Positions 1,384 to 17,209 are shown, numbered from the stretch's first letter. The stretch is DNA of 17,209 bases from an uncultured Candidatus Binatia bacterium (GCA_965215605.1 CBDCDX010000005.1:1-17209); one strand, 5' to 3'. Notes: generated from the sequence alone by a model not told the origin. Program-made: numbers and translations.

Positions 1384-2898
1384 ATGCACAATAGGAAAAT
1401 CAGGAAACTCGTGATCGCCGGCGGTGGGACTGCCGGATGGATGGCTGCGGCAATGTTTGCCCGGCAGCTCCGCGAAACCCTGGACATTGCCCTGGTCGAA
1501 TCCGACGAGATCGGTACTGTCGGGGTGGGTGAAGCAACGATTCCACCGCTGCGACTTTTTCACGAATACATGGATGTCAGGGAGACTGATTTCCTGCGGG
1601 CTGTACAGGGCACCTTCAAGCTTGGAATTTCGTTCGAGAACTGGCGGGACCTGGGCGAAGACTACTTCCATTCCTTCGGGTGGGTCGGCAGGGAGCGCTG
1701 GACCGCCGGCTTTCAACATTACTGGCTGAGGGGCCATTTGCTGGGCCTGGCCCGGGATTATGGCGACTATTGTCCGGAAACAACGGCGTCGCTGCGCAAC
1801 CGCTTTGCAATCAGCCTGCACAACGTTCTGAACTACGCCTATCATATTGATGCCGGACTGTACGGACAATTCCTGCGAGGTATTGCCGAGGAGCTTGGCG
1901 TTGTCCGGCATGAAGGACGAATTGAGCAGGTGGAACAGGATCCGACCAGTGGATTCATAACCGGTCTGCGCCTGCAATCCGGGCAACTCGTCACCGGGGA
2001 CCTGTTCATCGACTGCACTGGCTTTCGCGGGCTCCTGATCGGGCAAACCCTCGACGTCGGCTTCGATGATTATGGCGACTGGTTGCCCTGTGACCGCGCA
2101 ATCGCGGTGCCAACCGAATCGTCGGGAGCCGCGCAACCATATACCCGCTCGATAGCCCATGAAGCGGGGTGGCAATGGCGCATTCCGCTGCAGCACCGGG
2201 TCGGGAACGGCATGGTGTTCTCCTCCCGGCACTGGTCCGACGACGAGGCAAGGGCGCGGCTGCTCGACAATGTGCAGGGTCGGGTGCTTGGAGAGCCGCG
2301 GCTGATCCGTTTCAGAGCCGGCCAGAGGCACAGGTACTGGCACAAGAACTGCGTTGCCATGGGACTGGCATCCGGTTTCATCGAACCGCTCGAATCGACC
2401 AGCATCCACCTCATTCAGCGTGGCATCACCCGCTTGGTCCAGATGTTCCCCGATAACGGAATTCGCGAAGCCGGGATCGCAGAGTTCAATTCCCACATGC
2501 AGCTTGAAATCGACAATATCCGGGATTTCATCATCCTGCACTACCATGTGACCAACCGCTCGGATACGCCGTTCTGGCGGCAGTGCCGGACCATGAACAT
2601 TCCCGACTCCCTCGAACACCGGATCAAGTTGTTTCGTCAAACGGGCCGGATAGCGTGGAACCAGGCGGAACTATTCGGCACCACGTCATGGGCACAGGTC
2701 ATGCTGGGTCAGGGTCTGATTCCGGAACAGTATCACCCGATTGCCAATGCGATGAGCGACGAGGAACTGGGGCAATATCTGGCCGACATCCACGAAAATG
2801 TCGACAAGCAGGTGAACGAGTTTCCGGACCACCAGCAATTCATTGACGATTACTGCAAGGCACAACCGCCCGAATTCCAGGACCTGCCGACGTCATGA
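1384..2898 (+). CDS. Flavin-dependent halogenase, tryptophan halogenase (PrnA/RebH) family
   Basis: 504 aa. FAD motif GGGTAGW, GVGEATIP, catalytic Lys context QGTFKLGISFENW, FIDCTGF, WQWRIP (WxWxIP), FIEPLESTSI. Confidence 0.96.
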   Translation: MHNRKIRKLVIAGGGTAGWMAAAMFARQLRETLDIALVESDEIGTVGVGEATIPPLRLFHEYMDVRETDFLRAVQGTFKLGISFENWRDLGEDYFHSFGWVGRERWTAGFQHYWLRGHLLGLARDYGDYCPETTASLRNRFAISLHNVLNYAYHIDAGLYGQFLRGIAEELGVVRHEGRIEQVEQDPTSGFITGLRLQSGQLVTGDLFIDCTGFRGLLIGQTLDVGFDDYGDWLPCDRAIAVPTESSGAAQPYTRSIAHEAGWQWRIPLQHRVGNGMVFSSRHWSDDEARARLLDNVQGRVLGEPRLIRFRAGQRHRYWHKNCVAMGLASGFIEPLESTSIHLIQRGITRLVQMFPDNGIREAGIAEFNSHMQLEIDNIRDFIILHYHVTNRSDTPFWRQCRTMNIPDSLEHRIKLFRQTGRIAWNQAELFGTTSWAQVMLGQGLIPEQYHPIANAMSDEELGQYLADIHENVDKQVNEFPDHQQFIDDYCKAQPPEFQDLPTS

Positions 2899-3881
2899 TG
2901 TGGCAGCGGGATTTGCCGCCGGATTGGCCTTGCGCCAGACAGTTTGACAGGGCCAGTGCCATGAGAACGCTGCCATTGTTTCCCAATACGCCGTTTGTTG
3001 TTTCGGAAAGTGCCTTCGTGAATCCGAGATACCGGGGGTTCCGGCTGCCATGCCACGGTGATGGGGCCGATCATTCGGAGATGCTCGTTGTCAAGCCGAT
3101 CCGCGTTCACGATGCGCGCGCCCTCGAACCGGCCGCCACCATCGGGCGCATGGGGTTCGAGCTGGTGCATGCGCCGATCGATATCGATTACGGCAATCAG
3201 GACGATGTCGTTTCCCGGTTCTACGACCAGTGCGCGGAGCTGGTCATGGCGGCAACCGGATGCCTTTGTGCACGGACCATGCAGCACGAGTTTCGCACCG
3301 GTGTGCCAATTTCGCCCAACGGCGCCGGAACCTATGCGGAGACGCCCCACTCGGATCTGACTCCCTATGTCGAGGATGTGCTCGACATACCTGATGGCCA
3401 TCACTTCGGCGTCTACACTGTCTGGCGCAGCATAGACCCCCTGCAGGCAATCGAGTCAAAACCCCTTGCCTTGTGCGACCATTCGACCATCTCGGCCGAT
3501 GACATGATCAGTTCCGATGGATGGCGCCTGACTGAGCCGGGCACCCGCGTGGTATTGTACCGCCTTGTTCATGACATGGCCCAGAGCTGGCATTACTTTC
3601 CACGAATGGAGCCGAACGAGGCGATGATCTTCAGGCAATACGATTCCCGCATCAAGGATCTGGCCTCCCGGGTCACCTTTCACACCGCCTTCAACGATCC
3701 GACGACACGGGAGGATGCGCCAAGGCGGCGTTCTGTCGAAGCCCGCGTGGTCGCGGTCTTTGCCGAAGAAGATCCGACAGGCCGAAAATCAAGATACCAA
3801 GCCGAAATTCCAACGATGTATCCGGATGGCAGAACGTCATCCTGGCGCCACGAGAAGATGCTTGACTGGGGCGTGGATTGA
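2895..3881 (+). CDS. CmcJ/NvfI-family Fe(II)/2-oxoglutarate-dependent oxygenase
   Basis: Motifs GFELV, HSD (HxD), VWRSI...PLALCD, WHYFPRMEPNEAMIFRQYDS, FHTAFNDP (distal His), RRSVEAR. ATGA overlap with the halogenase stop; alternative start ATG at 2961. Confidence 0.8.
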   Translation: MMWQRDLPPDWPCARQFDRASAMRTLPLFPNTPFVVSESAFVNPRYRGFRLPCHGDGADHSEMLVVKPIRVHDARALEPAATIGRMGFELVHAPIDIDYGNQDDVVSRFYDQCAELVMAATGCLCARTMQHEFRTGVPISPNGAGTYAETPHSDLTPYVEDVLDIPDGHHFGVYTVWRSIDPLQAIESKPLALCDHSTISADDMISSDGWRLTEPGTRVVLYRLVHDMAQSWHYFPRMEPNEAMIFRQYDSRIKDLASRVTFHTAFNDPTTREDAPRRRSVEARVVAVFAEEDPTGRKSRYQAEIPTMYPDGRTSSWRHEKMLDWGVD

Positions 3882-4173
3882 ACGGAACCTCTGCCGCGTC
3901 GTCTGCGAAGGCTGTGGCGGCGTGATCTACACGCGGGTAGGGCGAGGGAACGGCGCCGGCATCTCTGCGGCCGGCGCCTACGAGGTCGGCGCCCGTTGAG
4001 ACAGTAGATCGCACGCCGGTCAAACGCACGGCAAGGAGAGGCAACGGGAAGCTTGTATGCTCGACCTCAAGGCACCCTTTGCTGGGCTACGCGTACCCCA
4101 GGGGCGCCTGTTTCAGTCCCCCGGACAATCCACAGTTCATCGCAACGGCCGGTGGTGCGATGGTTGCGGGCGC

Positions 4174-4799
4174 TTACACGGACAAGCCAAAAAACCAGTC
4201 CCGTCTGAGTGGAATGAAGTTATCGACGGCTCTTCCAAGCTCGTACCCGGAGGCGGGAGAAGCCGCGAATACCCTTTTGCCCGATTTCTTGACGGTTTCG
4301 ACTGCTGGTACGAAATCCCCATCTGCCGAGAGAAGATACGCTACATCGTATTGTCCGTCGTGCGCCATTGTAACCATGTCTACGGCGATTGAAACATCGA
4401 CCCGCTTCTCGGTGTACTGAGGGACGGACATTTTGCACAAGGCTTCAAGTTCGACGAGAATTGACCCACGGAGATCGGACTTATGGGCTGCGACTACGTC
4501 CTTTAGCCTCCCGATCAATGGATTGTCGTTCGGGGGACCATCCTGCGCTCGATTCGGCCCTTGAAAACCTCTACGCCTTGGCTCTGGATCCTGTTCAGAA
4601 ACTTTTGTTGAGATGAGCGCCGGGAGAGATTGCCGGAAACCTGTCCGACATAGTATCGGATACCGGCCAGTTGCCGATTCATAACGAGTTTCTCGGCCAA
4701 TTTCTGATAGTCGAGTTCTCCCGTGGCGATCCCGATGTTCTTGGCGGCATGGTAAAAGTTGCTTCCGTCGATGAAGAGGACCGCGCGTTCTGGTGCCAT
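4174..4799 (-). pseudogene. NYN-domain (LabA/DUF88, PIN-like) RNase split by a 1-nt frameshift
   Basis: N-half 4515-4799 has FIDGSNFY and IRYY. C-half 4174-4518 has EKRVDVSIAVDM, LLSADGDFVPAV and GKRV. One extra base in the G5 run at 4532-4536 joins them as MVPPNDNPLIGRLK, so this may be a sequencing error. Confidence 0.88.
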
Positions 4800-4808
4800 A
4801 AGGAACTC

Positions 4809-4853
4809 AAAAAAAACCCCCGGGGGCCGTTTCCGGCTCGATCCCGGGGGGGG
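4809..4853 (-). terminator. GC-rich intrinsic terminator hairpin in the 5' leader of the NYN gene
   Basis: Minus strand: CCCCCGGG-ATCGA-GCCG-GAAA-CGGC-C-CCCGGGGG followed by T8, ending 9 nt before the NYN ATG. Confidence 0.8.
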
Positions 4854-4873
4854 TTAGCAAGCTAGTCGGGCGG

Positions 4874-4902
4874 ATTTTACCTTTGCCGCCACCGCATGTC
4901 AA
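4874..4902 (-). promoter_or_regulatory. Near-consensus sigma70 promoter for the leader RNA/NYN gene
   Basis: Minus strand TTGACA (4902-4897), 17 nt, TAAAAT (4879-4874). Confidence 0.85.
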
Positions 4903-5013
4903 GCGGCTTGCCTGAGACGGCTTTTCTTTGCTCGCCGTTCAGCCGCTTGGACGTGTCTGTCCGAAACACCGCCCCTCAGCTTCCGCCAATCCGCGCTCGC
5001 GCTCCTTCTCTGG

Positions 5014-5331
5014 TCATGCGATCCCTGGACCGACACCCTTTCCTGGAACGCTCGCCTTGGTCGGCAGATGACGTATCTCGGCGCCGGTCTCCCTGTCGGC
5101 CTGCACCAAGTCGTACTGGGTCTGAAGGTTGAGCCAGAACTGAGGGTCGCTGCCGAACCAGTGACCTAAGCGTAACGCGGTGTCGCCCGTGACCGAACGC
5201 TTGCCGGCGACAATCTGGCTAACCCGGTTTGGGGGGACGTCGATCTGCCGCGCGAATTCCGTCGGAGTGATCCCCAACTCTTCCAACTCGCCTTTCAAGA
5301 CCTCGCCGGGATGGACAGCTCTCATGAACAT
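5014..5331 (-). CDS. higA: HigA-family antitoxin (XRE HTH), orphan
   Basis: VHPGEVL...VPPNRVSQIVAGKRSVTGDTALRLGHWFGSDPQFWLNLQTQYDL; strong RBS AAGGAGGAGG. Confidence 0.92.
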   Translation of the reverse strand: MFMRAVHPGEVLKGELEELGITPTEFARQIDVPPNRVSQIVAGKRSVTGDTALRLGHWFGSDPQFWLNLQTQYDLVQADRETGAEIRHLPTKASVPGKGVGPGIA

Positions 5332-5719
5332 GCGGTCCTCCTCCTTGTCATCGGTGGTAGTCTGGTCTTACCCGGTCCCGGGCCTTGCTTTACCAATCCT
5401 TCACTGGAAGGTACGCTGCATGCTGCTCATCAACAACCAGGAAGTCGAAGAGCAGACCGACATAAAGGTTCGTCTCAAGGCGCGCTGGAGATGGATTTTG
5501 GGGACTTCGCGCACAACGACGCCGTTTGCCGGCCCCGGCCGTGGGTGTGGCTACCGTGCGAGCGGCCGGATGACCATCAACGTTGGACACCATGGAGCCA
5601 GCCATACCATCGGCTCGTTCGCCATCCGCATGAAGTCGGACTTGGTCCATTGGGCTCGGCGACATCGAGGAGGAGTATTGCATGGAGCCTGGCCACTGAG
5701 GCGGGCTCATCAGCCATTC

Positions 5720-5747
5720 TTGACAGTCGCGGGCGGCGGCTTACACT
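5720..5747 (+). promoter_or_regulatory. Putative sigma70 promoter of hicAB
   Basis: TTGACA (5720-5725), 16 nt, TACACT (5742-5747), 8 nt upstream of the hicA ATG. Confidence 0.65.
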
Positions 5748-5755
5748 AGGAGTAG

Positions 5756-5968
5756 ATGAACGGGCGGCAGTTCATCACCAGGGTCCGCCAATGGGCAAGG
5801 GCCCGGAATTTGGAGATTCGCTTCGTGGTGTCGGAAGGGCCGGGATCGCACGGAACGCTCTACGCGGGAGATCGGAAGACGAGCGTCAAGGATCGAAAGA
5901 AGGAGATCGGCAAGGGACTGCTCGCCAAGATGCTTGCCGACCTCGGGATCGACAGGGACGAATTCTAG
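5756..5968 (+). CDS. hicA: HicA-family mRNA interferase toxin
   Basis: 70 aa basic protein with GPGSH motif and C-terminal EIGKGLLAKMLADLGI; directly upstream of a HicB-like gene. Confidence 0.85.
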   Translation: MNGRQFITRVRQWARARNLEIRFVVSEGPGSHGTLYAGDRKTSVKDRKKEIGKGLLAKMLADLGIDRDEF

Positions 5969-6010
5969 TGGGTGAGTACTGGAGCTGCCCGAATCTGGAG
6001 AACTGAGCCG

Positions 6011-6448
6011 ATGTCTGACACATACAACTATCCCGCCGAGATCGAGCGCGACCAGGACGGCCGTTATGTCGTCGCGTTTCCGGATTTCGGGTGGGGCGCA
6101 ACGGACGGCGCGACTCGCGACGAGGCGCTGGTCGAAGCCCGTGACCTGCTTCGAGAGTTGATCGCGGCTACGATGCGTGAGGGTAGGGACCTGCCGAAGC
6201 CATCGCGCGCGACTAGGCGTCGGCCGATTGTTGTTCCCCCGGTGCCGATTGCGCTGAAGGCGGCCCTCTACGAGGCGTTCCGTAAGGCTGGCATGTCGCA
6301 AAGCCGTCTCGCCCACGACCTCAATGTTGCCGAGAGCGAGGTGCGGCGCATGCTGAATCCGGATCATGTCACGAAGGCAGCCACCATCGACCGCGCATTG
6401 CGCCGGTTGGGGAAGCGTGTGAGCGTGACAGTCGGCGAGGCCGCGTGA
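6011..6448 (+). CDS. hicB: HicB-family antitoxin with C-terminal HTH
   Basis: YPAEIERDQDGRYVVAFPDF...TDGATRDEALVEARDLL...GRDLPKPS, then HTH MSQSRLAHDLNVAESEVRRMLNP. ATG 6011 preferred over 5972. Confidence 0.92.
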   Translation: MSDTYNYPAEIERDQDGRYVVAFPDFGWGATDGATRDEALVEARDLLRELIAATMREGRDLPKPSRATRRRPIVVPPVPIALKAALYEAFRKAGMSQSRLAHDLNVAESEVRRMLNPDHVTKAATIDRALRRLGKRVSVTVGEAA

Positions 6449-6620
6449 TCTGCTTTCGGTGATCTCACCCGCTGTGGTTGTCCGCAAGAAATTGGGGATT
6501 CGTGCATATCAGGTCATCTTGTGTTCTGTTGATGAATACGGTGTCTGGCCCGTCAATAATCCAAAAGGGGACTTGAAATCGAACTTTATGACTGATGCTA
6601 TCCCATCCGCTCTACACCCC

Positions 6621-7180
6621 CACCTAGTGTCGTGTCTGGTTAATCGGCGCTATGTGATTCCACCGACCCAGACAAGATCAAGCGCCCCTCCGTCGCGCGT
6701 ATGCTGCGAAATACTCCGGCACTCCGAGCCAGACTCGAGTCGGCCAAAAGTAAGTCTGACGGAAAAGTGCAGTTTGCGGTTGGAGGCCACCGGATTGCGA
6801 AAGTCATGCTCAAGCTTGCAAGAGGCCACGCGGCTTTTGAGCTTAGCTTGCCGTGCCGGAGTGAACCAGACCATTTTTGGTGTGTTCCAGTTTCTGAGCT
6901 GTCCAGTGACGCGCGTGATGCATTTAATGCGACACATGTTCGGAGGGTATTCGGTGAAGTTGGGTCTCGTGGGTTGCAGCGAATGCTCGTAACCCATGTT
7001 GCTCTGCAATCAGAATCGGGCGAACAATCCGAACTGCGGTTGCTTGTGACGGACTGGATCCATGTTCAGCAGGACCTGTACCGGTACCTTGCCGTCGACG
7101 ATGTCGGTGTGCTCGTGATCAGAATCGTCGTGGCCGAGTACCTTGCTTACGAAGTTGCGTGGCACCTGGGCACGGCCTAA
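6621..7180 (+). pseudogene. 5'-truncated, frameshifted gene; C-terminal part resembles an HNH-endonuclease-associated family
   Basis: The ORF 6701-7180 frame extends upstream as SALCDSTDPDKIKRPSVARMLRNTP and joins HLVSCLV across a 1-nt gap near 6641. KLARGHAAFELS, GEVGSRGLQR and IVVAEYLA.EVAW match my recollection of proteins with an N-terminal HNH domain, which is absent here. Confidence 0.5.
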
Positions 7181-7297
7181 CCACGCGATGATGTCGGGCC
7201 GCTGCTCTCCCGGACCGCCAAAGGCTAATTTGCGGTTTGCACCACACTGGTGTACCTAGACGTAAAATAGGCGGGCGTCCCCTGCTAGGTTGCCCAA

Positions 7298-7484
7298 GTG
7301 GCAACGGTGCAGCAAGGGAAACGGGCGGCTGACAAGGGCACCGTTCGAAAGTGGTTAGCGGCAGCCGCGCGCGAGCAACATCGTAGAGAGCGTGGCCCAG
7401 GAAAGCCGCGTCTTCGTAGCCTGGCTGGTTCGCGACGCTGTCTCGCTTTACATTTAGGACCGTTGACCTATGCTTGGGCCCTAA
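7298..7484 (+). pseudogene. Decayed ribbon-helix-helix (CopG-like) regulator
   Basis: Across frameshifts reads ...GTVR...REQH..ESVAQESRVSVAWLVRDAVSLYI*DR*PMLGP*, with in-frame TAG (7455) and TGA (7464); ends 9 nt before vsr. Confidence 0.6.
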
Positions 7485-7493
7485 TTCCAGACC

Positions 7494-7916
7494 ATGGACA
7501 CCGTCCCCGCCGAACGCCGATCGGAAATCATGTCGCGCGTCCGCAGTCGCGACACGCGCCCCGAGATGACCGTCCGCCGACAAGTCCACCGGCTTGGCTA
7601 TCGATACCGCCTTCACGGCAAGCGCCTGCCGGGACGGCCGGATCTCGTGTTCGCGAGCCGTCGTAGCGTCATCTTCGTCCATGGCTGCTTTTGGCACCGA
7701 CATCCGGGCTGCGGCCTCGCACGAACACCCAAATCCCGGGTCGTGTTTTGGCGCACGAAGCTCGACCGGAATCGTGAGCGCGATCTTGGCAACCAAGGGG
7801 AACTTCGTCGCATGGGCTGGCATTTTCTGGTGGTATGGGAGTGCGAGTTGCATGACCTCGAATCCGTCACGAAGCGGGTCGTGTGCTTCCTTGAGGATCG
7901 CCGTGAAGTCGGTTGA
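7494..7916 (+). CDS. vsr: Very-short-patch repair endonuclease
   Basis: MDTVPAERRSEIMSRVRSRDTRPE, LPGRPDLVF, IFVHGCFWHRH, FW..KLDRNRERD, GWHFLVVWECEL. Confidence 0.97.
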   Translation: MDTVPAERRSEIMSRVRSRDTRPEMTVRRQVHRLGYRYRLHGKRLPGRPDLVFASRRSVIFVHGCFWHRHPGCGLARTPKSRVVFWRTKLDRNRERDLGNQGELRRMGWHFLVVWECELHDLESVTKRVVCFLEDRREVG

Positions 7917-9144
7917 ACTGTTCGCCGGGGCGGGAGGGCTGGCGATGGGCGTCGCACGGGCGGGTTTCCAACATCTTGGGATCGTCGAGGCCGATCAATG
8001 GTGTTGCGAAACCATCAACCACAACCGCCTGCGGCGGGTTTCACCCGTCGCCGATTGGCCCACCGTTACGCCCACGGACGTCAAGAAGTGCGGGTTCGAC
8101 GGGTTTCCGAGCGACATCGCCCTCGTTTCCGGCGGCCCTCCCTGTCAGCCGTTCTCGCTAGGCGGCAAGCACCGCGGCCACGCCGACGCCAGGAATCTGT
8201 TCCCCGACCTTGTTCGAGCGGTACGGGTTCTCCGCCCTCGCGCGGTCATTGTCGAGAACGTGAAGGGCCTGCTACGAAAGTCCTTTGACCCCTACTTCAA
8301 GTACATACTTCTCACGTTGACCTACCCCACATTGGTGCAACGCGCCGGCGAGGACTGGCGCGCTCACATGGCCCGCCTCGAACGGCACCACACGTCGGGC
8401 GGCGAGTTGGAGTACCGAGTCGACTTCGACGTCCTGAACGCTGCCGACCACGGTGTTCCTCAGCACCGCGAACGCGTGTTTATCGTCGCGTTCCGCGCCG
8501 ACCTGGGCGTCCAATGGTCGTTTCACGATGATCTTCCCAGCACCCACAGTCCGGATAGGTTGCTTTGGGATCAATGGGTCACCGGGGAATACTGGGATCG
8601 GCACCGGATTCCCTCTACCAAACGACCCCCCGCACCTTCGCCACGTTACGCGCGTTTGAAGGCTCTTTCGTGTTCCCTTAATCCACCGCGCAGCGAACCT
8701 TGGGTGACGGTCCGGGATGCGATTTCCGACCTTCCAGACTCGGGCTCGGAAGAGGCCCGCACCGTTCTCAACCATCGTTTCAACTCCGGTGCCAGGAGCT
8801 ATCCCGGGCATACCGGCAGTCCATGGGACCGACCCGCGAAAACGCTCAAGGCTGGCGACCATGGAGTTCCAGGCGGTGAGAACACCCTTCGGCATCCGAA
8901 CGGCCGCGTCCGATATTTCACCGTCAGGGAAGCGGCTCGCCTGCAGACCTTCCCGGATCGCTTCGAGTTTCACGGCTCTTGGACTGAGACCATGAGGCAA
9001 CTTGGGAACGCCGTGCCCGTCCAACTCTCTTTCAATGTCGCCGAGAGCGTGGCGGCGGCGTTGCGGCGGGTTGGATCACGCCCGCCGGACATACTAGGGA
9101 GGGCAACCAAGTCTCACAAGTCAGCGAGGAAGTCCATGGCCTAA
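7903..9144 (+). CDS. DNA (cytosine-5) methyltransferase
   Basis: GTG start at 7903 with GAGGA RBS, overlapping the vsr end. Motifs ELFAGAGG (I), GGPPCQPFS (IV), ENVKGL (VI), PQHRERVFIV (VIII), REAARLQTFPD (IX), QLGNAVP (X). Confidence 0.96.
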   Translation: MKSVELFAGAGGLAMGVARAGFQHLGIVEADQWCCETINHNRLRRVSPVADWPTVTPTDVKKCGFDGFPSDIALVSGGPPCQPFSLGGKHRGHADARNLFPDLVRAVRVLRPRAVIVENVKGLLRKSFDPYFKYILLTLTYPTLVQRAGEDWRAHMARLERHHTSGGELEYRVDFDVLNAADHGVPQHRERVFIVAFRADLGVQWSFHDDLPSTHSPDRLLWDQWVTGEYWDRHRIPSTKRPPAPSPRYARLKALSCSLNPPRSEPWVTVRDAISDLPDSGSEEARTVLNHRFNSGARSYPGHTGSPWDRPAKTLKAGDHGVPGGENTLRHPNGRVRYFTVREAARLQTFPDRFEFHGSWTETMRQLGNAVPVQLSFNVAESVAAALRRVGSRPPDILGRATKSHKSARKSMA

Positions 9145-9201
9145 CGTCCATTTTCTAACCCCAGGTCAGAAAAACAATCTTACAGTTTTGGAGCCTCACT
9201 C

Positions 9202-11517
9202 ATGGCAACTAACGAACTGGACCTCACCCCCGACCCGAGGATCCTGAAGATGCTGGGCGAGATCGACCTCCACCAGTGGCGGTGTTTCGCCGAACTCATC
9301 GACAACTCCATTGACGGGTTCCTTCACGCGACTCGCGCCGGTGATCCGATAGAGCACGCCGAGATCGCCGTCACCATCCCGACGGCCGACGCCGACACGG
9401 TGCGAGTCGTGGTTAAAGACAACGGACCCGGGATGTCAATTGAGACGCTCGAAAACGCGGTCAAGGCGGGATGGTCCGGCAATGACCCGCTGAGTAACCT
9501 CGGGTTGTTCGGGATGGGCTTCAACATCGCAACAGCTCGTCTTGGTCTCGTGACCGAGGTTAGGACCACTCGCGCGGGCGACCCCGAGTATGTGGGTGTC
9601 CGCATAGACTTGGACGAGCTGCGAGCGACTCGGAATTTCAGGGTTCCGCGGCGGACCCTCCCGAAGCCAGACCACGCCGATCACGGTACCGAGATTGTCA
9701 TTTCGCGCTTGAAGCCCGACCAGCGTAGGTATCTTTCGCGTTCGAACAACCGCACGACGATCCGCAAACACCTGGCGCGGACGTATTCTTCGCTGCTCGT
9801 CGATTCGGTTGCCGGCGGGATCAAGCTCACTCTCAATGGCACTCGTGTCTCGCCGCGACGCCACTGCGTGTGGGACGGGTCGCGTTCCGTCGAATTGCCG
9901 GACAGAACCAAGGTCGAGGCGGTTCAGTGTATCAACGTGCCGCTCGCGCCTCGACGCTATTGCACTTATTGCATGCGCACACTGACGAACAACGAAGAGA
10001 CCTGCCCCACCGCGAGTTCAAGCTGCAATGTCGAGGAGGCCTCGAGGCAAATAACGGGCTGGGTCGGGATCCAAAGATACCTGCACAACACGGAGTTCGG
10101 GATCGACTTCGTTCGAAACGGTCGCAAGATCGAAATCGCAAACAAGGATTTGTTCGTTTGGAGCGATGGTGACACCGCGGAGGTCGAGTACCCCATCGAC
10201 GACCCACGCAACCGCGGCCGCTTTGTCGGCGAGATACATATCGATCATTGCAGAGTCAGCTATACCAAGGATCGGTTTGAGCGCGATGATCCGTCATGGA
10301 GCGAAATGGTCCGGGTGGTTCGGGGAGATGGGCCTCTTCGTCCAGTCGTGGCAGGTCAACGCGGCTACGAGGGCAATGAAAGTCCCCTGTTCCAACTCTT
10401 TCAGGCCTTTCGGCGGTCCAGCCCGCAGGGCAAGAACGGCTTGTGGTCAAGGGTTTTGGTGGTCAAGGACAACGATCGCGCGCAACAAATGGCCGACGCT
10501 TTCGCGAACGAAGACCCCGAATACTTGACCGACCAGCGATGGTGGGATCTCATCGAGGAACAGGACAAGGAGCTCCTCCGCGACACTGACCCGGGCGCTC
10601 CATCCGTGATTCCGGGCGGTTTCCTGGATGACCCCGACGACGAACCCGGAGGCGGCGAAACCGACCCACCGGAACCTCCACCCCCACCGCCGCATCCTCC
10701 CCGGCGCGCATTGCACGAGCTGACCAGGAAGTACGTGCACCCGACGTTTCGCGTCGAGTACGACATCCAGGCGTTCGCGGTTCAACGCAACGATTCTGAG
10801 TTGGTCGCGGGCGTGCCATGGGTGTTTCAACTGGACGATGTGGCCACGCGGACCTACGCGTTATTGGTGGACTTGGAGAACGAGGTGTTTCGCTCGACCA
10901 CCATGACGCCACTCGACGGCTTGTTGGCGGAACTCGCTCATAGGACTGTTGACTTTCTCAAAGGACAAGCCCAGGACGTTACCCTCGCGGGCGTGCTCGC
11001 GGACTTTCGCAAACAGTACTGTGTCGACACGCGCCTTGACCCCCAGGAGATCATCGCGTTCGCGACCGCAGTGCTGGACGAGATCGGTCGCGCCATACCC
11101 GACCTCCTCGCACCGGGACAAGGTGTCGAGCTTTACGCCGAACTCACGGAGGCCGAGAGGAACGCCGTCGCGCAACGAATGGCCAACCGAAACGTGGGAA
11201 ACCCCAATGAGACCATAGCCGACGGACGCTTCTGGGCATACGCCGAGTTCCAGTCCCTGAGAGGGCTATTCACGCGTCATCCCGAGCTGTTTCTCGATGG
11301 AAAGTACTGGGAGGACGCCTACGAGACGCTAGACTACGGGACCCCCCGGGTCACCGCCGATGCGAGAGTGAGTGTGGTCTCGCGATACGACGCGTATCTG
11401 GGCGACGCCGTCTGGATCGCAAATCAGACACCAGCGGATCTCGAAAGTACGAGCCGTGACACCATCATTCGCGCAACTTGTTCCCTGCGGCTATTGGGAT
11501 CCGACGTGGCCGGCTAA
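9202..11517 (+). CDS. GHKL (MORC/MutL-like, HATPase_c_3) ATPase with large C-terminal region
   Basis: 771 aa. AELIDNSIDG, DNGPGM, LGLFGMGF, HGTEIVI; S5-like GIDFVRNGRKI...GRFVGEIHID; CxxC...C...C insert; acidic/Pro-rich linker. Confidence 0.9.
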   Translation: MATNELDLTPDPRILKMLGEIDLHQWRCFAELIDNSIDGFLHATRAGDPIEHAEIAVTIPTADADTVRVVVKDNGPGMSIETLENAVKAGWSGNDPLSNLGLFGMGFNIATARLGLVTEVRTTRAGDPEYVGVRIDLDELRATRNFRVPRRTLPKPDHADHGTEIVISRLKPDQRRYLSRSNNRTTIRKHLARTYSSLLVDSVAGGIKLTLNGTRVSPRRHCVWDGSRSVELPDRTKVEAVQCINVPLAPRRYCTYCMRTLTNNEETCPTASSSCNVEEASRQITGWVGIQRYLHNTEFGIDFVRNGRKIEIANKDLFVWSDGDTAEVEYPIDDPRNRGRFVGEIHIDHCRVSYTKDRFERDDPSWSEMVRVVRGDGPLRPVVAGQRGYEGNESPLFQLFQAFRRSSPQGKNGLWSRVLVVKDNDRAQQMADAFANEDPEYLTDQRWWDLIEEQDKELLRDTDPGAPSVIPGGFLDDPDDEPGGGETDPPEPPPPPPHPPRRALHELTRKYVHPTFRVEYDIQAFAVQRNDSELVAGVPWVFQLDDVATRTYALLVDLENEVFRSTTMTPLDGLLAELAHRTVDFLKGQAQDVTLAGVLADFRKQYCVDTRLDPQEIIAFATAVLDEIGRAIPDLLAPGQGVELYAELTEAERNAVAQRMANRNVGNPNETIADGRFWAYAEFQSLRGLFTRHPELFLDGKYWEDAYETLDYGTPRVTADARVSVVSRYDAYLGDAVWIANQTPADLESTSRDTIIRATCSLRLLGSDVAG

Positions 11518-13192
11518 ATGCGGGAGCCCTTCCTCGATACGCGTCGACTTCTGAGAGGTCCTTGGCAAGCGTTCGAACGCGACGTCGCACGCCTCCTCGT
11601 TTACAACGGTTTTGACGACGTCCGCGTTGTGGGCGGTGCCGGCGACCGGGGAGCCGATGTCCTCGGCGTCAAGAAGGGCGAGCTTTGGGTCATCCAGTGC
11701 AAGTACACATCGTGCGGCTACCCGCCTCCTTCAGCCGTTAACGAGGTCGGGGAGGCCGCCCGATTCTACGGAGCCGATCGGATCTTCGTGGCATCGTCCC
11801 GACCTATCGGCCCCGGCACTCGAGACGCGATACAACGCTGGCGCGCCCTGGGAATGAAGATTGAAACCTTACAACCCAACACCCTTTTGGATATTGTGGC
11901 ACGCAGCCCCGAATATCCTCCGTGCCGCCGCGATCTCAGAGACTATCAGGAGGACGCGGTGGCCAATTTCGTGGCTGCACTCCGAGAGACTGGACGCGGT
12001 CAAGTCGTCCTGGCCACGGGTCTTGGCAAGACGGTGGTCCTCGCGGAAGCGGTGGCGCAGCTATTCCGTGACGAAGCCGTCCGTCACGGTCGAGCGCTTG
12101 TGCTCGCCGGCACGAGAGAGCTCGTCGACCAACTGCACCGTGCCTTTTGGGACCAGATCCCGAAATGGATAGCAACCCACGGTTTGATCGGCGGCGAGAC
12201 GCCGTCCCACTGGGATGGTATTACCTTCGCCACCGTGCAAAGCGTGGCTTCGCGCATCGACGAGCTTCCCGAATTCGGAGTTGTTCTCATAGATGAGGCG
12301 CACCACGTAGGCTCGGAAACGTTCAGACGTGTCACTGACCATCTATCCAGCGCAATGATTGGTGGAGTCACCGCCACCCCGTGGCGCGGTGATCGCTACG
12401 ACATCGACTATCTCCTAGGCCCGCCCGTGATTAGGATAGGCATTGCTGAGGGACTTCGACGGGGTTTCCTCTGCGAGGCCGACTACCGCATGCTGGTCGA
12501 CAATATAGACTGGGAGTTGGTCAGGTCCCGCTCGCGCAACAGCTATTCCATCTCCCAGTTGAATACACTGCTGCTCCTCCCGACTCGGGACGAAGAGGCG
12601 GCCAAAACAGTCCGAGAGACCTTCGATACCGATAAACGCCGCGCGGCCATCGCCTTTTGCTCGTCCATCACACATGCGAAGAGCTTCGCCGCCACGTTAC
12701 GCCTTTTCGGTTTTCGGGCCCGATCGATCACCAGCGACATGGAGGCAAGAGAGCGTGATCAAACCATGGCTTCCTTTCGAAGGGGTACGTTGGAGGTCGT
12801 GACGACGCGCGATTTGTTCAATGAGGGCGTCGACGTTCCCGACGTTGACATGATTGTGTTTATGCGGGTTACACATAGTCGGCGGATTTTTGTGCAACAA
12901 CTCGGTCGGGGACTCCGAGTGACTCCCAGAAAGGACAAGGTGATTGTGCTGGACTTTGTCAGTGATCTCCGACGCATCGCGGAGGTGATAGAGCTGGAAA
13001 AAGCGTCCCGCAGCGACATTGAGAGGCTCCGTATTCCAGGAATCATACAGTTCCGAGACGAGGGCGCTGGCAGCTTTATGCTTGACTGGATGCGAGATCA
13101 AGCAGATCTATTCAACCGTGAGGGGGACCCGCATCTCGAACTTCCCGTCTTCGGGGTACCGCCGCCGGAGCAACAAGGGTTCGATGCAATGA
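11518..13192 (+). CDS. Mrr-like restriction endonuclease fused to SF2 (ResIII/DEAH) helicase
   Basis: N-terminal WQAFERDVARLL...GDRGADV...IQCKY. Helicase motifs LATGLGKT, IDEAHH, GVTATP, LFNEGVDVP, QQLGRGLR. TAAATG coupling to the ATPase gene. The ORF track runs to 13569, but the real end is probably TGA 13190-13192 after a 1-nt indel near 13178. Confidence 0.9.
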
Positions 13193-13786
13193 TGCGTCTC
13201 GGTGAATGCTGTCGCGACGAGATTAAGACTCGACTCTGGGCCACGGCGGGGCACCCTCGGTACTGGTCAACGTTGTCGGACTTCCTGCGGTTCGCCGCGA
13301 ACTACTATGGGGTCTGGACACGCGACTCGGGCATTGCCGGCCAACTTGGCCGAGCTTCATGGATCCAAGGGCAAGGTACGAGCGGCCGATCAAGGCTACA
13401 CCCGCAACAAGCTTCTTCGAACGGCCGCGGAGTGTCGCTTCAACGACGAAGATCTCAACGAGCAGGCGTCTTTTGTGGCTCCGAGAGAACAGGACCAACG
13501 TGCAGCCGGCTACGGCAAACCACATGGTCGAGCGGTCCGGTCGGATCGCTTTGCAGAATCGTATGCTGAGCAACAGAGCGCTGCTGCCCTTGGCGAGTTG
13601 ATCCGTACATGACGGCATTTGAACGCCAGGCTCACGCCCAACCGGGACCCGAGCGCCCCCTGCTCCGTTCACCCTGGAGGTCGAGCGCCGCCCGCTGAGC
13701 GTCTATGCGGAGCACCGGTGTCAGCTTGTCAGGGCCGAGGCAGGCAAGCGCTTGGCGAATTCAGAAACTCGGCATGGCGGGAGTAA
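13189..13786 (+). pseudogene. Multiply frameshifted hypothetical gene coupled to the helicase
   Basis: Protein-like blocks in alternating frames: RDEIKTRLWATA, WSTLSD, YYGVWTRDSGIAGQLG, FMDPR, YGKPHGR, MTAFER, AWRE* (TAA 13784-13786). ATGA overlap at 13189-13192. Confidence 0.55.
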
Positions 13787-13813
13787 TGCCTCGGTGAGAC
13801 CTCAAGAGATATC

Positions 13814-14205
13814 ATGACATGTTATGAGTGGATTCCCTGAAGAGGCTTCAGATACATGGGATACGGCGTCATATTCGTTCCGGACGCCAACATCCTACTC
13901 CACCGACTGCGTCATTCTGGACACCAACGTGCGTGAACAGCTGCTACCACTCGGCAAGGCGCTGTCTAAACGACTCGACTTGGACTTCTCCTATCAAGTT
14001 TGGCGTCGTTGATCCATCGAAACCTCCAGGATGTCGAGGGCCGGCGATCTCGAGACGCTTCCGATCCGTGTCACCGACCTGCTGCACGGCCGTATTTGAG
14101 CAAACTTTTTTTCCCACGCGCTGCACGGTCCGCGCGACAATACCCTCATTCACCCGGAGCGGGAACTCGCGACACGCGGGTGGTGGTGACCCGTTGATTT
14201 TCAGG
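13814..14205 (+). pseudogene. Degenerate PIN-like domain gene
   Basis: Frameshifted blocks in the expected order: EEASDTWD, IFVPDANILLH, VREQLL...LSKRL, YQVGV..HRNLQDV, DLLHGRI, GDPLIF. This resembles the D(A/T)N.LL...HQV..E..RN...GD.IIW pattern of PIN-like proteins. Confidence 0.5.
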
Positions 14206-14234
14206 CCCGCATGCAAGCTTTTCTGAATGCATGC

Positions 14235-15030
14235 ATGGGCGCATCGACTACAAGGCCCCGGTGCTCATCGCAGGCCGATGACCGGCAGCTCGCAGGAGGT
14301 GGTGCGGCAGGCTGGAGAACCCAAGGGGGTCGAGCCGTTGGCGCCGCGAAGCCTGACTTGAGGTCCAGGTCGCCGGGGACGCATCGACTACAAGGCCGTC
14401 GGCTCCCGGCTGATCGCAAGCCGATGACCATGTGAGCAGATCGAGCGATGTGGTGGCAGTTCCTGGGCGGGTACGAGCGCACGGGTACGACCATCGGTCA
14501 ACGCCAAGTTCGTGCCCCGGATCGCTTCGTACGTGCGCAATCTCGACCCAACGACGGGTTTGCTCCAGGTCGGAGCCCAAAGGACGTGGCGCCGCTCCTG
14601 GGCCCGGTGGTCTACGGCCTCGGCGGCACCGAGCCCACGGTGTGCGACGCCGAGGTGGCCCTGGGGTATCTGAAGCTGGACTATTTTCTGGGCGGCCATC
14701 TCTCTCTGGACAAGGCGCCATGGCCGCTATCGGGGGGGGCGGATCGCCAAGCCTTGGGCATGAGCGTGACGGACGCCGCAGGAGGGATCTTCCGTGCTAT
14801 ACACGCCCACATGAACGATCTCATCCGCCACGGTTGAGCGCGGGCACGATCCACGGGAGTTCACCATGGTGGCCATGGGTGGTTCCACGCACACGGCGCG
14901 CTGTGCGCTCCAGCTCGGCGTGCACAAGGGGGTGGTCCCTGTGACGGCATCGGTCCACGCGGCCACCGGCCTGATCTCCGCGGACGTGACCTACGAGTAC
15001 GGCATGTCCGACCATGTGGTGGCGCCGCGG
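14235..15030 (+). pseudogene. Hydantoinase A/oxoprolinase-family fragment
   Basis: GPVVYGLGGTEPTVCDAEVALGYL..DYFLGG.LSLD, LGMSVTDAAGGIF, FTMVAMGG, VVPVTASVHAATGLISADV; several frameshifts, both ends missing. Confidence 0.8.
14241..14429 (+). repeat. Imperfect direct repeat with exact 17-nt core GCATCGACTACAAGGCC
   Basis: Core at 14241-14257 and 14381-14397, each followed shortly by ATCGCA(G/A)GCCGATGACC. Confidence 0.75.
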
Positions 15031-15111
15031 ACCCGGACCGCCTCAACGCCGGGTTCGAAGCGCTCCGTGCCCGAATCCGGCAGCAGCGTTAGCGAGGAGG
15101 ATGACAGTCCG

Positions 15112-15363
15112 ATGAAGCGACCGTTCAGAGAGAACCTTGAGTTGGACCTGGATTCGGCGCCGTCGCGGGTCCTGTGCGCTCGGTGCGGCTTCGTGTTCGG
15201 CGGAGAGGCCGACTGGAAGCGGCGCAGCCGCCGGAAGCTGTCGCCCCCCACCGCGGCCGGTCCGCTCATGAAGGACCTGGAAGGCCAGTTCCTCCTGGAG
15301 CAACTATTCTGTCCCTCCTGCAAGACCCTGCTCGATTCGGAGATCGTGGAGGCGTCGAGCTGA
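15112..15363 (+). CDS. Acetone carboxylase gamma-subunit-like Zn-binding protein
   Basis: 83 aa with CARCG and FCPSCKTLLDSE; GAGGAGG upstream; adjacent to the hydantoinase-family remnant. Confidence 0.7.
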   Translation: MKRPFRENLELDLDSAPSRVLCARCGFVFGGEADWKRRSRRKLSPPTAAGPLMKDLEGQFLLEQLFCPSCKTLLDSEIVEASS

Positions 15364-15612
15364 CGCCCCGCCGGTCGCCGAACCGCTGCCGCCGCGCTTG
15401 CATCCGATATCGTTTTGCGTATATTCCAATCCTTTGTTATTATTCTACGCGGTATGCTTCCACAGTAATCGATTTGGTTGTCGTCGTGACTTGAACAGCG
15501 AGCTACGCCCCTCCTTTTGGTGTTCGAGAGGCAAGTGCGGGGTTGCTTCAAGGCCCGCTGCCCGTTGCGGTTGTGTCCTGGTGGACGGAACAACGGTTCT
15601 GATTCAACAGGG

Positions 15613-15654
15613 ATTTCCAGGGATAAGGTAACAATTTCCAGGGATGACGTAACA
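15613..15654 (+). repeat. Tandem 21-bp direct repeat immediately upstream of the Fic gene
   Basis: ATTTCCAGGGATAAGGTAACA (15613-15633) and ATTTCCAGGGATGACGTAACA (15634-15654), 19/21 identical. Confidence 0.85.
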
Positions 15655-15656
15655 GT

Positions 15657-17197
15657 TTGGTGGCGGATGTGACTCTTCAGAATAGTTTTACCGGTCCTGT
15701 TAGCATATTTCAGGAACGGCGGCTTCCCGTTTCCGCCACCCCGGCCGGCTACGCGGCTTTGATCAGGGGTTACGGTCTGCGCGTGCCGCTCCCTCGCATC
15801 CTGTGCGCCGTGGCAGACCGGTCGATTCGCATGGAAGAACGCGGATGGCGCATTTTCCCACCGCGCTACGCTCCCGATGCCACCCTGGAAGACCACCTGA
15901 CCTTCGCCCTCAAATACGAAGGGCTCGACCTGGCCGTCCTCAAGCGCCTGTTCGTCGCGACCGGTCCCGGCCCGGTCCAGGCATTGGTCAGGGCAACGCC
16001 CACGGGGTCCTACGCGCGGCGCGTCTGGTTCCTCTATGAATGGCTCACAGGAGAACGGTTGGCTTTGCCGGACGCCGATCGCGGGGCCTATCCCCACGTC
16101 GTCAATCCGGCCCAACAATACGCGGGACGGGGCGAAATCTCTTCCCGGCACCGGGTGAAGAACAATCTGCCGGGAACTCCGGATTTCTGTCCGCTGGTGT
16201 TTCGGACCGAGGCGCTGGAAGCGTTCGTAGGCATGGACCTGCAGGCCTGCGCCCGGCAAGCGGCAGCGGCGGTACCCCGCGATCTGCTGACACGGACCGC
16301 CGCTTTCCTCTTGCTGAAGGACTCCAGGTCCAGCTTTGCCATCGAAGGCGAGCGCCCGCGCCAGGACCGCATTCAGCGATGGGGCCGCGCCATCGCCCGG
16401 GCCGGCAGGCAGCCCATCGATCTCGACGAGCTGCTGCGCCTGCAGCGGATCATCATCGCCGATTTCCGGTTCCTGCGTCCCGGCCTCAGGACCGAGGGCG
16501 GCTTCGTCGGCGCGCACGATCGTGACACGCGCATGCCGATACCGGACCACATCAGCGCCCGGGCCGGCGATCTGGCGCGGTTCGTGGACGGCATGATCGC
16601 GTTCGACAAGGAGGCCGCGCCGCACCTCGATCCGGTGGTGGCCGCGTCCGCGCTCGCGTTCGGGTTCGTCTTCGTGCAGCCCTTCGAGGACGGCAACGGC
16701 AGGCTGCATCGGTACCTGATTCACCATGTCCTGGCCGAGCGTGGATTCAACCCGCCCGGCGTCGTCTTCCCGGTCTCGGCGGTGATCCTGGACCGGATGG
16801 ACGGTTACCGCGCGGCGCTCGAAGACTATTCCCGGAGACTGTTGCCCGCCGTGGACTGGGAGCCCACCGGCGACGGCAATGTCCGCGTGCTCAACGACAC
16901 CGCCGATTTCTACCGGTTCTTCGATGCGACGCCTCAGACGGAGTTTCTGTACGGGTGCGTGCGGAGGACCGTCGAGCAGGACCTGCCGGAAGAGGCGGCC
17001 TTCCTGAAACGGTACGATGCGTTCCGGTCCAGGTTGGACATCATGTTCGATATGCCGGACCGTCTCGCTGATCTCCTCTTCCACCTCCTGCAACAGAACG
17101 CCGGGAGGACGAGTTCGCCGCGCTGAGCGACGAAGAGGTGGAGCGGGTTGAGGCGGCCTACCGCGAGGCTTTCGGAAAGGGCGAGCGCCGGGACTGA
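15657..17197 (+). CDS. Fic-family protein with variant motif and C-terminal frameshift
   Basis: FVQPFEDGNGRLHR motif, SSFAIEGE helix. The ORF stops at 17126, but a protein-like tail EFAALSDEEVERVEAAYREAF...* continues in another frame to TGA 17195-17197. Start uncertain (15657/15660/15669). Confidence 0.9.
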
Positions 17198-17209
17198 AAA
17201 CCGGCCACC

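Follow-up and report, generated by a model that had tools for sequence, protein, structure and literature searches.

Introduction

Prokaryotic MORC proteins have been defined by GHKL motifs together with an S5 domain of the signature GhXhhpXXRhl (Iyer, Abhiman, Aravind, 2008, PMC2292703). In the passages of that study dealing with 'type 1' MORC operons, a Rad25-like superfamily II (SFII) helicase fused to an N- or C-terminal DNase of the restriction endonuclease (RE) fold is described, often with cytosine methylases and Vsr, and a restriction-modification (R-M) function with MORC-driven DNA looping is predicted; an analogy to MutL/UvrD/Vsr is noted there, and occasional recruitment to repair is allowed for (PMC2292703). 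Here we describe such a locus in a stretch of 17,209 nucleotides from an uncultured Candidatus Binatia bacterium (GCA_965215605.1 CBDCDX010000005.1:1-17209), the whole of which is referred to as the window. We consider it rather more likely than not that its block of vsr, dcm, ATPase and helicase genes represents class B (vsr-dcm-MORC-helicase) of an R-M-like cassette that spreads horizontally, depends on ATP and groups several genes about a prokaryotic MORC ATPase. At its 3' end this copy has decayed.

The window has the defining features of a type 1 operon, namely the GHKL motifs, the S5 signature, an adjacent helicase-nuclease, and Dcm with Vsr, and the family shares the sporadic, laterally mobile occurrence of the operons as described there (PMC2292703). 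The figure legend of that study names Roseovarius sp. and Erythrobacter sp., and the loci surveyed here include Roseovarius sp. 217 (L041) and a member of the Erythrobacteraceae (L063). In contrast, a 175-aa protein (termed g5 here), a PIN_8 nuclease and an Eco29kI-type restriction endonuclease (REase) are not mentioned for this operon type in the text on type 1 operons, and the window copy is partly decayed. A first-pass annotation of the stretch had called the operon uncharacterised, which holds for experiments but not for the architecture, already described and predicted to be an R-M system (PMC2292703). The cassette is a known predicted architecture that is experimentally uncharacterised, and the window holds a partly broken new copy of it. 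In the sections of an October 2026 preprint that concern these ATPases, the role of prokaryotic MORCs is still called 'proposed', and their clade is separate from Tiamat in its tree (10.64898/2026.09.30.754977). The GHL-ATPase defences Hma and Tiamat treated there resemble the cassette in combining ATPase, helicase, nuclease and methylase in an R-M-like arrangement. However, the HmaA nuclease is of the DUF3883 type and the methylases near Tiamat are mostly adenine methylases (10.64898/2026.09.30.754977), whereas the window encodes Mrr_cat and a C5 methylase and has no Pfam match to DUF3883 or NOV_C at E<=0.01.

The nuclease-helicase resembles type I HsdR and type III Res in the fusion of a PD-(D/E)xK nuclease to a superfamily 2 (SF2) translocase, with presumed ATP-driven translocation followed by cleavage. 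It is unlike type I systems in that the EcoAI-family HsdR model reached 97.6 bits against a cut-off of 550 and no HsdM, HsdS or Mod genes were found, and unlike HsdR/Res systems in that the window methylase is a stand-alone C5 enzyme and the MORC ATPase an obligatory neighbour. Mza (mzaABCDE) has a Dcm-type methylase, Vsr, a GHKL ATPase and further ATPase and nuclease genes in common with the window. The MzaB equivalog, however, scored 14.8 bits against a cut-off of 850, the partner in the window is an Mrr-helicase with g5, and none of the 14 window open reading frames (ORFs) scanned had a PADLOC match to Z1 or AIPR. For DISARM, no DrmA, DrmB or DrmC was found among the matches listed, only a generic DrmMII match on the methylase (6.4e-42). 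The earlier statement that the gene set lacks the Z1/AIPR genes of Mza and the DrmB/PLD genes of DISARM is supported. Three further candidates were set aside on the portions of the reports that describe them: Caulobacter ScmA/VsrA (PMC12907096) and the paraMORC two-component-like system (PMC8011034) are different systems, and V. cholerae VcSduA (PMC12137116) is paraMORC3/Shedu, a separate family.

Genes of the cassette in the window

The first-pass annotation had described co-oriented, tightly packed genes with intact motifs in the four large genes, and this was borne out by ORFs, domain matches and translations: vsr, dcm, ATPase and helicase all lie closely spaced on the plus strand with every motif intact (Table 1). 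Three of the junctions it listed are present. The dcm gene starts at GTG 7903, with a 14-nt overlap with vsr, or at ATG 7852, and vsr is overlapped either way; a 57-nt spacer (9145-9201) containing GGAG precedes the ATPase start at ATG 9202; and TAAATG (11515-11520) forms the ATPase/helicase junction. The fourth, ATGA at 13189-13192, is present but lies out of the helicase frame.

Vsr matched Pfam Vsr (2.7e-27) and TIGR00632 (8.8e-39; 132.5 bits, above the cut-off of 97.85), and its residues 1-134 align with relatives. Dcm matched PF00145 (DNA_methylase, 6.2e-57) and PADLOC MTase_II (2.6e-122); its translation contains the methyltransferase motifs FAGAGG, GGPPCQPFS, ENV, QHRER and GNAVP, and the protein is 77% identical to the methylase of surveyed locus L001.

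The ATPase comprises an N-terminal Bergerat fold, a MORC S5 motif, a CxxC...C...C cluster, a proline-rich linker and a helical C-terminal domain. It matched Pfam HATPase_c_3 (3.2e-9) and carries the motifs ELIDNSID, DNGPGM and GLFGMGFN; GHKL motifs I-IV are intact, with E31, N35, D73, G75, G77, G101-G106 and T163 invariant in alignment A1. From G300, GIDFVRNGRKI fits the signature GhXhhpXXRhl at 10 of 11 positions (the one deviation is K at an 'h'), and G300, D302, F303, R305, N306, G307, R308, K309 and I310 are invariant in the same alignment. MORC3 was the best solved-structure sequence match (E 3.9e-4, PDB profile search). Judged by this match and the S5 motif, the window ATPase is MORC-like, in agreement with its first identification as a GHKL/MORC protein.

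The AlphaFold2 model of the ATPase (15-row alignment) had a mean predicted local distance difference test score (pLDDT) of 56 and was confident only in the GHKL part and the helical C-terminal region at ~610-760. The S5 region scored <50, and the putative S5 fold is assigned here from the sequence motif. Foldseek with this model returned GHKL modules only (Hsp90/TRAP1/MutL/SMCHD1), Pfam gave no family for ATPase residues 200-470 and 500-771 or for the fused tail, and the Atlas search with the ATPase C-terminus found only unnamed clusters. The poorly modelled middle of the protein holds an invariant CxxC-x10-C-x6-C cluster (residues 254-275) and an equally invariant GEIHxDHC motif (343-350), which may form a zinc ribbon or metal site. 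NF050001, the model of the BbrUII/HgiDII REase, reached 21 bits against a cut-off of 550 over residues 69-292 only; unlike that REase, the ATPase has no full-length match to the model, and the partial match hints at no more than the occurrence of GHKL-like modules in a named REase family.

Relatives of the ATPase are numerous: 3603 proteins reached E<=0.001 among 7999 candidates scored. Full-length relatives are 43-100% identical, the best 120 of them 63-100%, and where these bear a name at all it is 'ATP-binding protein', 'hypothetical protein' or 'Histidine kinase-, DNA gyrase B-, and HSP90-like ATPase'. The phage collection held no match to the ATPase. No model of PADLOC v2.0.0 matched the ATPase, g5 or PIN_8.

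In the nuclease-helicase, Mrr_cat (2e-10), ResIII (3.4e-25) and Helicase_C (4.8e-16) were recognized, and the motifs ADV...IQCK, ATGLGKT, DEAHH, TATP and QQLGRGLR are present; none of the Mrr catalytic residues or helicase motifs varies in alignment A4 (33 sequences). The NCBIfam matches RadD (5.1e-38), EcoAI HsdR (6.1e-28) and XPB (1.4e-19) were all far under their cut-offs, and the rad25 model gave 2.2e-8. The best PADLOC match was mREase_IV (PDLC03659, 1.1e-45), over profile positions 235-571 of 945 only, which correspond to the helicase core.

Table 1. Cassette features and neighbouring genes in the window, with positions counted from its first nucleotide.
Feature	Position	Strand	Remarks
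vsr, very-short-patch repair endonuclease	7494..7916 (ATG 7494, TGA 7914-7916)	+	140 aa, intact
dcm, C5 cytosine methyltransferase, Eco29kI-like family	7903..9144	+	intact; open frame 7594..9144
Prokaryotic MORC-type GHKL ATPase	9202-11517	+	771 aa, intact
Mrr-type PD-(D/E)xK nuclease fused to SF2 (Rad25/RadD-like) helicase	11518..13188	+	homology to about residue 554
Frameshift site	13160..13192	+	one extra base near 13170 compared with 6/6 relatives (DNA alignment A3)
g5 remnant (gene of ~175 aa in relatives)	13189..13353	+	first ~51 codons, now in helicase frame
PIN_8 (PIN-like) nuclease gene stub	13836..13976	+	split over two frames
Tryptophan halogenase and CmcJ/NvfI-family oxidoreductase	1384-3881	+	PF04820, 5.8e-189; NF041278, 2.8e-45; 4-nt overlap
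NYN-domain fragment	4515-4799	-	94 aa; Pfam 1.8e-7, PADLOC HEC-09 7.5e-10
HicB-like antitoxin	5972-6448	+	HicB_lk_antitox 1.1e-5, just under cut-off
Fic/DOC protein	15657-17126	+	489 aa, intact; Pfam Fic 3e-10; PADLOC candidate PDC-S24 E 9.6e-187, nearly end to end
ORF opposite the Fic gene	14991-17207	opposite	no family match

Conserved linkage among relatives

Species-representative genomes (one per species) were scanned for relatives of the ATPase, which yielded at least 444 encoding stretches among 591 pattern matches; the locus counts given here refer to the best 78 of these at least 444 stretches. The 78 loci are spread over Alpha-, Beta- and Gammaproteobacteria, Acidobacteriota, Nitrospirota, Verrucomicrobiota, Gemmatimonadota, Planctomycetota, Myxococcota and Thermodesulfobacteriota. 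A helicase match lies directly 3' of the ATPase in 76 loci, the misses being L005, where the gene is absent, and L065, where the contig ends within the ATPase. For g5 the count is 71; five of the seven misses are contig ends, and the gene is genuinely absent in L005 and L057. The synteny survey that the first-pass annotation had called for thus upheld its trio of ATPase, helicase and hypothetical protein.

A homologous Dcm was found in 76 of the 78 loci, with both misses (L024, L034) at contig ends, so the linkage to the methyltransferase, on which the earlier reading depended, is conserved. Vsr is present in 73; L034 and L072 are at contig ends, and the gene is genuinely absent in L060, L061 and L078. 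The order ATPase-helicase-g5 is fixed throughout, while the methylase/Vsr module lies upstream, downstream, split around the trio or inverted; the gene order of the window recurs in 10 loci. In nine loci methylase, ATPase, helicase, g5 and Vsr form a compact, co-oriented block in which no other REase was found. The variable placement of methylase and Vsr around a fixed trio indicates selection for linkage and not common descent of one arrangement. Given its recurrence in 78 loci across many phyla, the gene arrangement is far from chance.

A damaged or absent trio gene beside an intact methylase ORF was seen in five loci (L002, L005, L027, L028, L057) and the reverse in one, L078, where the methylase is apparently frameshifted and the trio intact; these are small numbers, and errors in the assembly of metagenome-assembled genomes are possible. 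The Vsr gene of L003 is interrupted, with ~2.5 kb of inserted DNA between its halves (7085-9950), and L027 (7097-10000) has a shortened Vsr, a comparable gap before the ATPase and an ATPase spread over three frames. An insertion element is likely to be behind both gaps.

A conserved, divergently oriented gene of 233 aa was observed upstream of the MORC ATPase in 17 of the loci (L035-L044, which include L039, L046-L048, L050, L053, L056 and L032; e.g. L044 9175-9876, minus strand). It had no match in Pfam, NCBIfam or PADLOC, and it may have a regulatory role or be one more component of that subclass.

The partner methylase and its endonuclease

All methylases linked to the trio belong to one family, the Eco29kI-like methylases. 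Over 94% of its length, the window methylase shares 47.6% identity with that of NC_001537.1, one of the small E. coli Eco29kI plasmids, where the gene adjoins an 'Eco29kI family restriction endonuclease'. Unlike these plasmids, the window lacks the REase, and the ATPase-helicase-g5 trio has no counterpart on them.

ORFs of >=90 aa within 4 kb of the core genes were clustered and the Eco29kI-type REase was counted. An Eco29kI-family GIY-YIG endonuclease adjoins the methylase in 45 of the 78 loci, in two clusters of 36 and 9 loci (Pfam RE_Eco29kI 5.9e-28 and 1e-7; PADLOC REase_II 6.4e-24); in the remaining 33, endonuclease families other than the Eco29kI type may be present. No Eco29kI-type REase was detectable in the window. 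The earlier observation that a stand-alone type II REase is missing is therefore correct for the window but does not extend to the 45 relatives.

Across the locus classes, the target recognition domain (TRD) was as conserved as the catalytic core, its identity lying within 0.03 of, or above, that of the core in 17/17 methylase pairs. By this comparison the members of the methylase family probably have one or a few CG-rich palindromes as sites in common. Two loci have exchanged their methylase: in L031 it is 46-49% identical to those of the nearest trio relatives, while Vsr is 70-78% and the trio 91-96% identical, and L017 has a near-identical trio with a methylase from a different cluster (~62-65% identity). 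We considered these swaps as a test of the trio's indifference to specificity and rejected them, since with TRDs as conserved as cores the swapped methylases may well share a site. Eco29kI recognizes CCGCGG.

The window methylase is also 46% identical to that of pDrdI from D. wulumuqiensis NEB 479, which lies directly upstream of a diverged trio (ATPase 33% and helicase 47% identical to the window; g5 profile E 2.3e-36). M.DrdVII, with the site YCGCGR, is the sole 5-methylcytosine (5mC) methylase listed for pDrdI, and no R gene is assigned to it (PMC6430315, Table 1); only one C5-methylase homologue was found on pDrdI, the one adjoining the trio. In the record annotation, the M.DrdVII-MORC-helicase-g5 block (L080; pDrdI 46773-60068) stands among genes for an HNH endonuclease, DUF2726, an AAA ATPase, a nucleotidyltransferase and the E2/UBC family. 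This neighbourhood looks like a defence island on a megaplasmid.

The g5 protein family

In relatives of the window, g5 is a conserved protein of ~175 aa that starts at the ATG of the helicase stop/start overlap. It had no match in Pfam, NCBIfam or PADLOC. Its AlphaFold2 model has a pLDDT of 94.7, with five helices in the N-terminal half and a beta-beta-beta-alpha-beta-alpha-beta arrangement in the C-terminal half. Foldseek against the PDB gave no match at E<=0.001; the best, at 0.031, was a CdiA-CT toxin, and weak fold matches (E 0.08-0.2) included the RE-fold nucleases T7 endonuclease I, EndoMS/NucS, EcoT38I and Can2. The Atlas fold search returned unnamed clusters, with NucS_C sub-threshold at 0.79. 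These matches are a weak lead that g5 might have a degenerate RE-like fold; a canonical D...(D/E)xK motif was not found by eye in alignment A2. A BLIP-II-like identity, indicated by PDB sequence matches, was rejected, as these rested on a short DGxVxxWG-like repeat.

An exhaustive search with the g5 profile found 371 representative clusters, 198 of them at E<=1e-10 and nearly all of 170-210 aa. Two proteins of ~505 aa from separate 50%-identity clusters (P0247, P0270) carry an N-terminal PIN_8 domain and the g5 domain at residues 313-477. With PIN_8 first, they invert the gene order g5-PIN_8, which excludes a read-through artefact. In P0269 (371 aa), DUF4365 is joined to the N-terminal half of g5. 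Because the g5 domain is fused to PIN_8 and DUF4365 nucleases elsewhere, its domain partners suggest a nuclease-associated adaptor or regulatory module; no result supports the specificity subunit proposed at first pass, and there is no sign of DNA sequence being read by g5. P0121 is a single helicase-g5 fusion of 732 aa, exactly the sum of both genes, and may represent the same sort of junction slip as in the window.

Decay at the 3' end of the window copy

The helicase ORF of the window encodes 683 aa and stays open to 13569, whereas relatives have ~557 aa and end in ...GxVQ before the stop; in tblastn, homology of the helicase ends at residue 554 in most loci. A CAATGA stop/start overlap is kept in all seven aligned sequences. 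In the window, ATG is at 13189-13191 and TGA at 13190-13192, but the helicase frame reads the ATG and misses the native stop: owing to the extra base near 13170, the ORF runs on out of register to 13569. Over the last 528 nt of the helicase, DNA identity to four relatives is 68-70%.

Beyond this point homology is soon lost. The g5 profile (71 proteins) matched the window significantly at positions 2-51 only (13195-13353, E 3.1e-7), fused to the helicase; a collinear match to positions 61-109 in another frame (13397-13549) was insignificant (E 0.2), and there was none past 13549. In tblastn the remnant is 38-39% identical to g5 of L008 and L036. At the DNA level, nucleotides 1-165 of g5 are 51-56% identical to relatives, and over nucleotides 166-528 the identity of 48-50% does not rise above that of a shuffled control (47-52%), whereas the relatives are 65-67% identical among themselves. 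The intact fifth gene ending at 13786 that was first annotated is thus not there: ~51 codons of g5 are left, and the window lacks any real gene end at 13786.

A PIN_8 gene lies 3' of g5 in 36 of the 78 relatives (PF18476, 2.1e-56, for the L008 protein). In the window, tblastn with the proteins of L008, L025 and L026 found a stub of it (13868-13918, 76% over 17 aa, E 5e-4; 13847-13933, E 0.001). ORF listing and domain scans found no long ORF with a family match in 13600-15600.

Neighbouring genes

The PDC-S24 gene lies ~2 kb downstream of the cassette, and the ORF opposite to it looks like an antisense shadow of the Fic gene. Upstream, the halogenase and oxidoreductase form a small pair of tailoring enzymes unrelated to the cassette, and the HicB-like protein has a weak, sub-threshold C-terminal match resembling a helix-turn-helix. 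The region from 3.9 to 7.4 kb is otherwise without long family-matching ORFs, which suggests a degraded island. Among relatives, copies in Ruegeria YS9 and on D. wulumuqiensis pDrdI are plasmid-borne, and integrase and AbiEi-like genes adjoin the cassette. With these plasmids and neighbours and PDC-S24, the context of the cassette is mobile and defence-like.

Discussion

Our comparison suggests a present or former ATP-dependent restriction module, with 5mC as the self mark, as the most likely nature of the cassette. The Eco29kI-like Dcm would methylate a CG-rich palindrome on host DNA, and Vsr would repair the T:G mismatches arising from 5mC deamination. A MORC dimer would, through ATP-driven N-terminal dimerization, clamp or loop DNA bearing unmethylated sites and engage the HsdR-like Mrr-nuclease/SF2 motor, leading to translocation and cutting. 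The g5 protein, translationally coupled to the helicase in relatives, may act as an accessory or adaptor, and PIN_8, if present, as a second nuclease. The support is indirect: a single methylase family, compact operons in which no other nuclease was found, invariant motifs, a mobile and defence-like context and asymmetric decay all point in this direction. A fixed site common to methylase and trio would also give the observed pattern of one methylase family with TRDs as conserved as the cores.

Several points weigh against this reading. A conventional Eco29kI-type REase stands beside the methylase in 45 of the 78 loci, and there the methylase needs no trio as a partner. No sequence-reading domain was identified in the cassette, in which the ATPase model has a pLDDT of 56 and a C-terminal domain with no named Pfam or Atlas match. 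The apparently frameshifted methylase beside an intact trio in L078 would be unexpected under restriction, barring an assembly error or a second methylase copy. A literature search found no experiment on the MORC-helicase cassette family. Finally, the single extra base in the window helicase could be an assembly error, an explanation that does not cover the loss of g5 homology.

The likeliest of the rival explanations concerns the state of the window copy and not the nature of the family. It holds that this copy is defunct: Dcm and Vsr are orphaned, the genes downstream of them are non-functional, and there is no present role in defence. We incline towards it. The frameshift at the helicase end, the disappearance of g5 homology after ~51 codons, the PIN_8 stub and the lack of a long family-matching ORF in 13600-15600 all agree with it. 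Nevertheless, both the ATPase, with its 771 aa, and the helicase, over 554 residues, are still open, full length and complete in their motifs, so that any inactivation must be recent, and the extra base has the possible technical origin mentioned above. Given the frameshift and what is left of g5 and PIN_8, restriction has probably been lost or is being lost here, with dcm and vsr still in place, and the window copy is probably not functional. Loss of the restriction half with the methylase kept is the usual route of decay of R-M systems.

In an unlikely alternative, the trio defends the cell as a nuclease-helicase that depends on modification (type IV-like) or otherwise works independently of the methylase, and merely sits beside an Eco29kI-type type II R-M/Vsr module. 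The mREase_IV match of the helicase and Mrr_cat, the domain of Mrr, are in keeping with it, as are the complete type II sets of methylase and REase (with or without Vsr) in 45 of the 78 loci and the reassortment of trio and methylase in L017 and L031. However, the mREase_IV match is limited to the helicase core, unlike that of a full-length type IV enzyme, and a cognate-looking methylase is present in 76 of the 78 loci. In the nine compact loci methylase and Vsr flank the trio in the same orientation with no other REase found; that a sole methylase family accompanies the trio would be unexpected for an indifferent neighbour, and, next to a 5mC methylase, a nuclease that depends on 5mC would endanger its own cell.

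A very-short-patch/mismatch repair kit travelling with a mutagenic 5mC methylase, in which Vsr nicks T:G, MORC is a MutL-like matchmaker and the helicase-nuclease plays the UvrD/exonuclease part without restriction, is a little more improbable still: the presence of Vsr in 73 of the 78 loci, the diverged methylase of L031 beside its well-conserved Vsr and trio, and the MutL/UvrD/Vsr analogy with occasional repair recruitment in the passages on type 1 operons (PMC2292703) speak for it, but the trio is kept without Vsr in L060, L061 and L078, which have room for it, and on pDrdI, the invariant Mrr-type nuclease-translocase fusion is the architecture of a restriction subunit with best PADLOC and NCBIfam matches to type IV and type I restriction enzymes, and the PIN_8 and Eco29kI-type nuclease partners, the plasmid and defence-island setting and the sporadic spread over phyla all argue against it.

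Returning to the restriction module, the family is common, with at least 444 matches in species-representative genomes, many phyla and plasmids, and it is missing from PADLOC v2; the only annotations of the trio are 'ATP-binding protein', 'DEAD/DEAH box helicase' and 'hypothetical protein'. Our survey adds a fifth component that is strictly conserved, falls in no known family and has a confidently modelled fold, the frequent PIN_8 and Eco29kI-type nucleases, and the confinement of the partner methylase to one family. The link to M.DrdVII, the g5 family with its nuclease fusions, and the PIN_8 and Eco29kI partners are perhaps more useful than the window itself, which with its decayed 3' half is a poor subject for experiments; the Ruegeria sp. 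YS9 plasmid (NZ_CP102414.1, ~3259-11552, in the order Vsr, methylase, GIY-YIG REase, MORC, helicase, g5, PIN_8) and D. wulumuqiensis pDrdI (51439-57344), for which the methylome motif YCGCGR is known, offer intact, tractable loci, and L066 and L074 are examples of the compact arrangement with Vsr after g5.

Prokaryotic MORC operons, predicted restriction systems since 2008, are taken as the ancestors of the eukaryotic MORC chromatin ATPases. We tentatively propose, at somewhat short of an even chance, that the trio forms a class of its own among ATP-dependent restriction machines, in which the MORC clamp would sense an unmethylated CCGCGG/YCGCGR-like site, or DNA nicked there, and pass the DNA to the HsdR-like motor, with the hitherto undescribed 175-aa adaptor domain coupling the effectors. 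If this is true, the cassette would be a prokaryotic prototype of the methylation-linked action of eukaryotic MORCs.

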